This document shows, piece by piece, positions 61,143 through 61,442 of a stretch of 64,000 nucleotides of DNA. A model generated the notes under the pieces. That model did not search any database. It saw only the letters and a program-made list of their open reading frames with translations, and was not told where the DNA came from. The stretch is from IMG/VR virus record IMGVR_UViG_3300012344_000014, positions 42,581 through 106,580 of that record; one strand, given 5' to 3'. Source of the stretch: a virus. Its lineage: Duplodnaviria; Heunggongvirae; Uroviricota; Caudoviricetes. How positions within the stretch are numbered: the stretch's first letter is position 1; each line of letters begins with the position of its first letter. The position numbers and the translations under genes were made by a program.

Positions 61143-61151
61143 TGTTATAAT
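61143..61151 (+). promoter_or_regulatory. extended -10 promoter (TGTTATAAT)
   Basis: Lies just upstream of the 5' arm (61156-72) of the family A copy 2 cassette. Confidence 0.5.
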
Positions 61152-61208
61152 GTTCATGTCCACGGTTGATGGAAGAAAACGCCGAGCCGTAAGTTTTTAA
61201 CCAAATTG

Positions 61209-61442
61209 ATGATTTATCTCTTGCGTGGCGTAACCTGCGTGTTACAAGCTGTAAGCAATTACAGCGGCTTGGTATTTTTGTTCCCGACCGCCGAGACAAG
61301 TCCTCTCGGCGTCTTGTTACTGGCAGCAATCGCGATAGCGCTTGTTGTCTTTGCAGAACTGCACGACCGCGGCGAACCTCTTCCATCAACGGTGGACATG
61401 AACTGTCCACGGCTTATGCGCCGGCCTCCAATCGTTCTATGA
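61209..61442 (+). CDS. small hydrophobic protein, family A copy 2
   Basis: The core LQAVSNYSGLVFLFPTAETSPLGVLLLAAIAIALVVFAELHDR is paralogous to 44037-44378. The start (TTG 61206 or ATG 61209) lacks a clear RBS. Confidence 0.45.
   Translation: MIYLLRGVTCVLQAVSNYSGLVFLFPTAETSPLGVLLLAAIAIALVVFAELHDRGEPLPSTVDMNCPRLMRRPPIVL

Follow-up and report, generated by a model that had tools for sequence, protein, structure and literature searches.

Along a 64,000-nucleotide (nt) stretch of phage DNA (positions 42,581 to 106,580 of the Caudoviricetes virus record IMGVR_UViG_3300012344_000014, referred to here as the window), several short plus strand cassettes carry near their 5' ends sequences that are complementary to sequences near their own 3' ends. 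A first-pass annotation of the window had described four such cassettes and likened them to the fold-back inhibition of hok-type toxin mRNAs, and the question raised by the locus is whether these repeats close the transcripts end to end or have some other cause. We conclude that the complementarity is real, non-random and conserved, and that the general fact is an inverted repeat at the ends of five cassettes. Closure of the plus strand transcript fits three of these five, termed A, copy 1 and copy 2, for which it is strongly supported that the mRNA's 5' end pairs near its 3' end to form a closed panhandle. The whole reading, in which these three are self-contained modules whose toxin-like mRNAs are closed end to end, goes further, and in our judgment it has about an even chance of being right. 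The repeats round the other two cassettes, B, which encodes a HicA-family protein, and a holin-like gene that the first-pass annotation missed, mark cassette boundaries and are not transcript closures.

All four of the complementarities first described are present, and most are stronger than was claimed. Specifically, cassette A (coordinates are on the plus strand unless stated otherwise) has an extended -10 promoter, TGATATAAT, at 19411-19419, 5' arms at 19427-19455 that begin 8 nt past the -10, an open reading frame (ORF) for a 54-residue peptide at 19516-19680 and 3' arms at 19698-19742. The outer helix (19427-19442 with 19726-19742) has 16 bp and one bulge, and the inner helix (19444-19455 with 19698-19709) has 12 bp, so that both amount to 27-28 bp, and this closure is found in the minimum free energy (MFE) and centroid structures alike (z = -8.4). 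In copy 2, a 17-nt match with one mismatch had been noted, and this turns out to be the core of a 25-nt inverted repeat (61152-61176 with 61379-61403, 24/25 complementary) whose closure is likewise present in both the MFE and the centroid structure (z = -6.1). The 5' arm of copy 2 begins 1 nt past its extended -10 promoter, TGTTATAAT (61143-61151), with ~19-21 nt of it expected in the RNA, and the 3' arm lies within the codons for the C-terminal tail (LPSTVDMN) of a 78-residue small membrane protein (ORF 61206-61442). Copy 1 is the most elaborate of the three. Its extended -10 promoter, TGGTATAAT, at 43834-43842 is followed by 5' arms at 43849-43908, and the 3' arms at 44261-44304, in the 3' untranslated region, also contain an alternative local hairpin, GAACGTCTGCGCGTTC. 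Helix H1 is made up of 43849-56 with 44280-87 (8 bp) and 43859-64 with 44271-76 (6 bp), and helix H2 of 43884-96 with 44292-304 (13 bp). RNAalifold extends H2 by 43897-901 with 44270-74 (5 bp) and 43903-08 with 44261-66 (6 bp), such that H2 and its extension occupy 43884-43908 on the 5' side and the total comes to as much as ~38 bp in two helix sets that cross. The two blocks of copy 1 had been described as lying in a non-nested order, which is correct; and since H1, besides crossing H2, shares positions with the H2 extension and with the local 3' hairpin, a pseudoknot or alternative conformers are possible.

The strength of these pairings was judged from the duplex energy between the first 45 nt and the last 60 nt of each cassette, set against 3000 random segments of the window, which averaged -22.2 kcal/mol with a 0.1th percentile of -45.1. 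Cassette A (-53.2), B taken from its -35 element (-55.5) and the holin-like repeat (-53.3) have values reached by none of the 3000 segments, and for copy 2 (-49.0) a fraction of 0.0007 is equally low or lower. The first 45 nt of copy 1 alone give -29.4 (fraction 0.13), a stretch that omits most of its 12/12 block, for which our arithmetic gives an expectation of ~0.008 in a 500-nt region. B taken from its predicted start site gives -14.1, which is not significant. A window-wide ranking of inverted repeats within 600 nt is headed by B, the holin-like cassette and copy 2 (ranks 1-3), with A at rank 6.

Conservation and covariation in relatives, one of the touchstones that the first-pass annotation had named for its proposal, were found for both cassette A and the family formed by copies 1 and 2, and they include compensatory changes. 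The relatives came from ENA and Logan assemblies: L001-L003 were found through the small protein itself, L013 and L015 through the neighbouring PD-(D/E)XK nuclease, and those of A and B through homologues of ClpP (L009, with 97% ClpP identity, L010, 80%, and L012, 77%). The small-protein family thereby comprises seven copies, five of them outside the window; no relative of the small protein was found in IMG/VR, the JGI metagenomes or the GTDB genomes, and L004-L008, considered as relatives, were rejected as chance pattern matches. The outer and inner helices of cassette A are kept in all three carriers (the window, L009 and L010). In L009 two G-C pairs are exchanged for A-U, and in L010 the arms differ in sequence and are again complementary (CGGAGGAGAAAGGCC with GGCCTTCTTCTCCG, ACACGTCGC with GCGACGTGT). 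In the alignment of the three sequences, 86% of the cells are paired as compared with 41-61% when the partners are slid, six pairs are changed on both sides as compared with 0-2 in the slid controls, and the observed values are matched in only 2 of 500 shuffles. Over the whole RNA, RNAalifold counts compensation at 20 of 96 pairs.

The small-protein family has two types of arm, type 1 in copy 1, L002, L013 and L015 (GCGCAGAC..CGCCGA and GAAGGTGTAACG) and type 2 in copy 2 and L003 (TTCATGTCCACGGTTGATGGAAGA), which are unrelated in sequence, lie at the same positions and are each complementary to their own 3' partner. At one type-1 pair, copy 1 and L013 have C-G where L002 and L015 have U-A; L002 and L013 are each other's closest relatives, yet they differ at this pair. 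The columns of the type-1 arms are 8.8% variable as compared with 28.8% elsewhere (Fisher p = 3e-4), which is also below the variability of the ORF. The local hairpin said to compete with closure in copy 2, GTGGACA-TGAAC-TGTCCAC at 61389-61407, does exist; it is not kept in L001 or L003, and we reject it as a conserved switch, real as it is, because it is specific to copy 2.

Copies 1 and 2 encode paralogous small membrane proteins with the core NYxGLVxLxPTAxxxxxGxLLLxxIAIALxVFxxLxDR and the hydrophobic stretch LLL(M/A)AIAIALVVF, whose best 17-residue hydropathy (3.02-3.06) indicates a clear membrane helix. The variable sites of the family are distributed 14/15/27 over codon positions 1/2/3, and this concentration at the third position fits a coding plus strand ORF; for the same reason a minus strand ORF of 95 residues (61123-61410), which fits neatly between the flanking genes, was rejected. 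The proteins match no Pfam or PHROGs family, neither Hok/Gef nor any other toxin family, and theirs is an orphan family, a single cluster among 1.84 billion representatives. The full module has the order promoter, 5' arm, box AACGCCGAGCC, structured leader of ~170 nt, Shine-Dalgarno (SD) sequence and ATG, six codons, TAG, remainder of the ORF and 3' arm. In copy 1 the leader occupies 43865-44036, overlapping the H2 arm, with the SD GGAGG at 44020-24, and the ORF runs from the SD-led ATG at 44037 through TAG at 44055-57 to 44378; its conserved core extends to ~44205 (..DRPHH), and the tail beyond it is not conserved at the protein level. The leader (GGGAGAATWTGGAGGTTT) has GNRA-type loops and compensated, covarying helices. 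It is present in L002, L003, L013 and L015, truncated at its 5' end in L001 and missing from copy 2, in which CGT also replaces the in-frame TAG of the other copies. That TAG lies in a conserved hairpin (cGUAGG-N6-CCUgCg). A 12-nt stretch, TCCCGACCGCCG (~44110-44121 in copy 1 and 61282-61293 in copy 2), is invariant in all seven copies, synonymous sites included, and a segment within it, GACCGCC, is predicted to pair with the type-1 SD.

A, copy 1 and copy 2 each combine a strong extended -10 promoter, which faces against the operons around it, with an ORF that encodes ~50-80 residues. The sequence TGNTATAAT occurs eight times in the window as compared with 1.1 expected, and the cassette promoters lie 14-21 nt from the SD of the divergent minus strand gene, with the cassettes facing against their flanking genes. 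That the arms are the 5' ends of transcripts, as was first claimed, agrees with A and copy 1, where the helix starts 8 nt (A) and 7 nt (copy 1 H1) after the extended -10, the expected +1; it agrees less exactly with copy 2 and not at all with B, as described below. The plus strand also folds better, the mean single-sequence MFE being -134.6 as compared with -113.5 on the minus strand for A and -171.6 as compared with -162.5 for type 1, with 96 as compared with 74 and 128 as compared with 113 consensus pairs, respectively, and z-scores of -8.4 and -6.1 for A and of -6.1 and -4.8 for copy 2. Moreover, many conserved helices need G.U pairs that exist on the plus strand, and the closure CUGGA/UUCGG needs two of them. 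The start of the helix at +1, the better folding and the G.U pairs together favour the plus strand for A and type 1.

Cassette B behaves differently. Its promoter (21471-21508), with a -35 of TTGTAT at 21471-76 and a -10 of TATAAT at 21494-99, coincides with the left arm (21475-21508), which spans the -35, the spacer, the -10 and the +1, and lies mostly upstream of the predicted mRNA start, which falls at ~21506, right at the SD. The right arm (21751-21784; 34 nt at 82%) falls between the stop codon of the ORF and that of a convergent minus strand gene. The ORF itself (21519-21734, with three in-frame TAG codons) matches PF07927 over positions 1-58 of 58 (E = 4.7e-8). The product of B is thus a HicA (type II-style) toxin and, because the 5' arm of the cassette is its own promoter, its plus strand transcript cannot be closed by that arm, so the proposal that B is a fold-back toxin mRNA does not hold. 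A GGAGG/CUUCC pairing of 5-6 bp is possible in B and is not significant. The B arms co-vary in L010, the promoter spacer included, and a two-base difference between the arms (TATAAT vs ATTGCA) is kept in all three relatives. We also observed that the B protein has GGD in place of the GSH of the family, from which its catalytic histidine may be lost, and that the SD of B is deleted in L010. A second HicA cassette, A2 (19758-20019), follows A and has its own promoter (TTGCAG-17-TATAAT) and an ORF (19807-20019) with two TAG codons that, read as sense, give a PF07927 match over positions 1-58 of 58 (E = 9.4e-14). When end-to-end pairing was examined for A2, neither closure nor repeat was found, and the repeat of cassette A encloses A only. 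No HicB partner is seen for the HicA of B or of A2.

The fifth cassette (59925-60375) is bounded by an inverted repeat (59925-52 with 60348-75, 28 nt at 89%) whose arms lie outside both the promoter (59974-82) and a terminator-like hairpin (~60318-45). Its ORF (60045-60326) encodes a 93-residue holin-like membrane protein and contains two TAG codons, both conserved. Divergent from it is a minus strand gene (59633-59897) for an 88-residue protein that has a lipobox-like motif, LLGC, and ends in a transmembrane segment; it may be lysis-related. On the other side, a cassette with its own TGATATAAT promoter at 60381 has no repeat; its ORF (60408-60710) encodes 100 residues with a C-terminal transmembrane segment and overlaps the 3' end of a convergent Bro-N gene (60590-61126, minus strand) by ~120 nt.

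For A, copy 1 and copy 2 we put forward the following mechanism. Closure would bury the 5' end and anchor the 3' region of a densely folded mRNA, giving a long-lived message; in a host of the Firmicutes type it would hinder the entry of RNases J1 and Y and of 3' exonucleases, as may be compared with the hbs mRNA. Closure, together with pairing of the SD to an internal segment of the ORF, would hold translation of the message at a low level until opening or trimming releases it, a logic also seen in hok fold-back inhibition, in the long-distance interaction of aapA and in hbs. The peptides are toxin-like by their small size and hydrophobicity.

Several observations weigh against this proposal. 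The N-terminal segment of the cassette A peptide, which is followed by a basic tail, is only weakly hydrophobic (1.04-1.64), and toxicity is predicted from the kind of sequence. Folding the full-length and the 3'-trimmed RNA, which had been suggested as a check, gives no sign of a hok-like switch: trimming off the 3' arm in silico has no effect on how accessible the SD is predicted to be, the probability that SD plus start are unpaired in the full and the truncated RNA being 0.30 and 0.28 for A, 0.39 and 0.39 for copy 1 and 0.48 and 0.47 for copy 2, and a role of the 3' arm as an anti-SD or switch was accordingly rejected. All start sites are placed by the position of the -10, and in copy 2 and L003 the complementarity extends 5-6 nt upstream of the expected +1. 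The energies of the arm duplexes are similar on the two strands and do not discriminate between them. Consensus scans, which are insensitive to promoters without a -35, detected no minus strand, antisense promoter inside copy 1, copy 2 or A. With just three or four relatives per family, the covariation statistics are weak. L001 keeps a type-2 3' arm without the 5' arm; its copy (1-380), which lacks the promoter as well, stands directly after a plus strand coiled-coil ORF that resembles a tape measure gene, and the arrangement reflects either recombination or a chimeric assembly. Finally, the repeat covers the promoter in B and lies outside promoter and terminator in the holin-like cassette, which means that some repeats are not plus strand transcript closures and that one common cause other than RNA would be more economical. 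With the arms of the fifth cassette outside the transcription unit, explanations at the level of DNA or of the minus strand stay live.

The first of these holds that the repeats act in minus strand read-through RNA, where a terminal helix would fold the antisense insert into one closed domain. No promoters are visible for the individual minus strand genes on either side, and the operon transcripts must therefore cross the cassettes in antisense; the helix could then serve as an RNase III site or an insulator, restore coupling, or set free a stable RNA that is antisense to the cassette mRNA. Such an explanation would hold for every one of the five cassettes, B and the holin-like one with their arms outside the plus strand transcript among them. 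It agrees with the position of the helix base, which in three cassettes is 6-13 nt past the upstream stop and in all five is 14-21 nt ahead of the next SD, a constant geometry relative to the minus strand SD, with the minus strand folding z-scores, which are also significant, and with the likeness of the arm energies. Scans found no minus strand promoters upstream of the downstream genes, and the candidates seen near the cassettes were rejected: one inside B (21555-21528) is not conserved in L009, one at the right end of B (TAGAAT, 21804-21799) is within coding sequence and not kept in L010, and a TATAAT beside the holin-like cassette (60380-60375) is not kept in L003. However, read-through would make the start of the helix at the plus strand +1 of A and type 1 a coincidence, it does not account for the better plus strand folding of these two with their many internal G.U helices, and it leaves open why the repeat of A excludes A2 and why A2, the cassette at 60381 and the A2 of L012 do without one. 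The read-through transcription is itself inferred only, and we consider this explanation rather unlikely.

The second places the repeats in the DNA, as cassette boundaries that could be footprints or substrates of a recombination by which the modules are moved, inverted or replaced; the arms would be kept alike by occasional gene conversion, and RNA pairing would be a by-product. Modules are indeed gained and lost whole, A and B being absent from L012, which carries A2 without any repeat, and the type-1 cassette from L014. The same boundary sequence, GTTCCGCTCATGAT..GGA, precedes different cassettes in L003 and the window, a near-perfect arm of 25 nt cannot arise by point mutation, the B arms co-evolve within untranscribed promoter DNA, and the promoter-stem-loop (PeSL) cassettes discussed below are a precedent (PMC2839356, PMC4122927). 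Set against this, every repeat is unique and there is no shared site; none of eight related loci has an inverted cassette, no target-site duplication is seen, and the ORFs scanned include no invertase or transposase and only one large serine recombinase. Moreover, the non-nested arms of copy 1 are unlike the product of an inverted duplication, and the bulges, the G.U pairs and the conserved TATAAT/ATTGCA mismatch speak against homogenisation. Our assessment is that such an origin in the DNA is rather improbable.

A strict hok-type type I system, with an inert closed mRNA that is trimmed at its 3' end, refolds and is countered by an antisense RNA antitoxin, we regard as very unlikely. The parts it shares with the cassettes are end-to-end pairing, a small membrane peptide, a long structured leader, a short SD-led frame ahead of the main ORF, the alternative pairings of copy 1 (H1 versus the local 3' hairpin) and the ability of the copy 2 3' arm to pair with a downstream copy of TGTCCAC. 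The parts that are missing are an antisense promoter, a change in SD exposure on 3' truncation, a conserved competing hairpin in copy 2, and homology of these orphan proteins to Hok or another toxin family. Hence, of a hok-type device, end closure stands in principle for A and copies 1 and 2, and the antisense promoter, the 3'-arm switch and the homology find no support. Chance complementarity in G+C-rich intergenic DNA, where random 45 x 60 nt duplexes average -22 kcal/mol and the first 45 nt of copy 1 are no outlier, is effectively refuted for A, copy 2 and B by their energies and window-wide ranks and by pairings that are conserved and compensated in relatives, and hardly merits further thought.

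In-frame TAG codons occur in the two HicA genes, a PAPS-reductase gene, the holin-like ORF, cassette A (19582-84, conserved in L009 and L010) and copy 1. The PF07927 matches of the two HicA genes run end to end over five TAGs, the PAPS_reduct domain (gene 42202-43116, minus strand) has an internal TAG, and, among the 55 ORFs with 100 residues or more, no more than 4 terminate in TAG; by these marks TAG appears to be a sense codon in this phage. One HicA TAG is TGG in L010. No tRNA, suppressor or other, was found in the 64-kb window or in the related loci that were fetched. The literature describes TAG-reassigned gut phages of the Clostridia type with genes for ClpP, PhoH and holin (PMC10607447; 10.1101/2021.08.26.457843). 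It should be noted that gene calling with the standard code misses or shortens the cassette ORFs, and that in the annotations of relatives calls on the opposite strand replace the holin-like ORF (L003) and the HicA of A2 (L009). With TAG apparently read as sense, the early in-frame TAG might, more speculatively, form a second, translational gate that is tied to a suppressor tRNA. A wider proposal would make all of these cassettes a phage-specific class of two-key modules for killing or lysis, in which mRNAs that are produced constitutively, end-paired, resistant to nucleases and silenced by folding, for membrane peptides, HicA and a holin-like protein, also require a suppressor tRNA at the early TAG, with the repeats doubling as recombination handles. 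We think this wider proposal quite doubtful; if true, the keys would time host killing or lysis, and in a lysogen they could instead cause abortive infection upon superinfection by a TAG-suppressing relative.

The window is part of a large phage genome, and an identical ClpP is found on a contig of 112,403 bp. Its genes include those for DNA polymerase III alpha with an intein, NrdD, a primase-helicase, a large serine recombinase, SHMT, ClpP, SSB, AbiEii and a SpoIID/SH3 lysin, and PhoH is annotated in related loci. No close phage relative was found in INPHARED at the DNA or protein level; the nearest protein matches to the window bear Clostridia labels, and the host is probably of a Gram-positive, Clostridia-like type. 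Several side observations concern these genes. DNA polymerase III alpha (32578-37494, minus strand) has an Intein_splicing domain between its PHP and NTPase domains. Accessory genes of the toxin or defence type are numerous, among them the HicA genes, an AbiEii-type nucleotidyltransferase toxin gene (54012-55567, minus strand) with a partner ORF upstream, and three Bro-N genes, two of which have a KilAC domain. Near the conserved N-terminus of the PD-(D/E)XK nuclease (43059-43830, minus strand), none of the codons ATG, GTG and TTG is present. A good SD of this gene, GAGGTGAT, is followed by an in-frame ATT (ATC in L015), and this, with no standard start codon nearby, suggests a non-canonical start codon or a frameshift.

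End closure is known from bacterial toxin mRNAs and, to our knowledge, not from this kind of phage. It has been worked out in few systems (hok and aapA, in bacteria and plasmids), and we now find it in at least two unrelated orphan peptide families within one apparently TAG-reassigned gut phage lineage, where the covariation makes the cassettes a testable case of convergent RNA design and where RNA folding is linked to stop-codon reassignment as a possible timing device. The cassettes whose repeats include the promoter (B and the holin-like gene) point to an undescribed organisation or movement of phage accessory modules.

Among known elements, an inverted repeat of 25-34 bp round a segment of 200-400 bp recalls the invertons of the Gin/Cin/Hin kind, from which these cassettes differ in having no common site, invertase or inverted variant that could be found; in A, copy 1 and copy 2, moreover, the repeat does not enclose the promoter. 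An inverton, a miniature inverted-repeat transposable element and a retron were all rejected, as the repeats have no site in common, the scanned ORFs include neither an invertase nor a reverse transcriptase, and no inverted variant or target duplication was seen. Rfam 15 gave no match at the gathering score in the window, the leader included, and a group I intron in copy 1 (Intron_gpI, 14.4 bits, E = 0.38) was rejected as far below threshold and on a cassette strand opposite to the flanking genes. The PeSL cassettes of T4-type phages (PMC2839356, PMC4122927) are similar in that they, too, are modules, each with a small non-essential ORF and a sigma70-type promoter of its own, that are shuffled between related phages and have repeats at their boundaries; the PeSL motifs, however, are direct, shared promoter-terminator sequences, whereas here the repeats are inverted and unique and the cassettes run against the flanking genes. 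The hbs mRNA of B. subtilis has an interaction between its 5' and 3' untranslated regions (PMC5737220), and in a Firmicutes-like host such pairing of the ends could limit access of RNases Y and J1 and stabilize the mRNA here as well, although hbs is a strongly translated housekeeping gene and the present ORFs are toxin-like and seemingly poorly translatable. Close parallels are the hok and aapA toxin mRNAs, for both of which end-to-end interactions are described in PMC6733600, where coupled covariation is cited in support in the case of hok. With aapA/IsoA of Helicobacter the cassettes share an own promoter, a small peptide and an end-to-end interaction in the full-length mRNA; no antisense RNA is seen here, and the 3' element of aapA is an anti-SD, whereas in these cassettes the predicted partner of the SD is the internal, invariant ORF segment GACCGCC, and that of the 3' arms is the 5' terminus. 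As in hok/sok, the 5' end of a highly structured mRNA for a small toxin-like peptide pairs with the 3' end in A and copies 1 and 2, though not in B. The differences from hok/sok are that sequence homology and a Sok-like antisense promoter were not found, that there is no sign of the 3' arm controlling exposure of the SD, and that the setting is a phage of a Clostridia-like host with in-frame TAGs. Hence, without being members of the hok or aapA families, the cassettes work like the known 5'-3' closures of toxin mRNAs.

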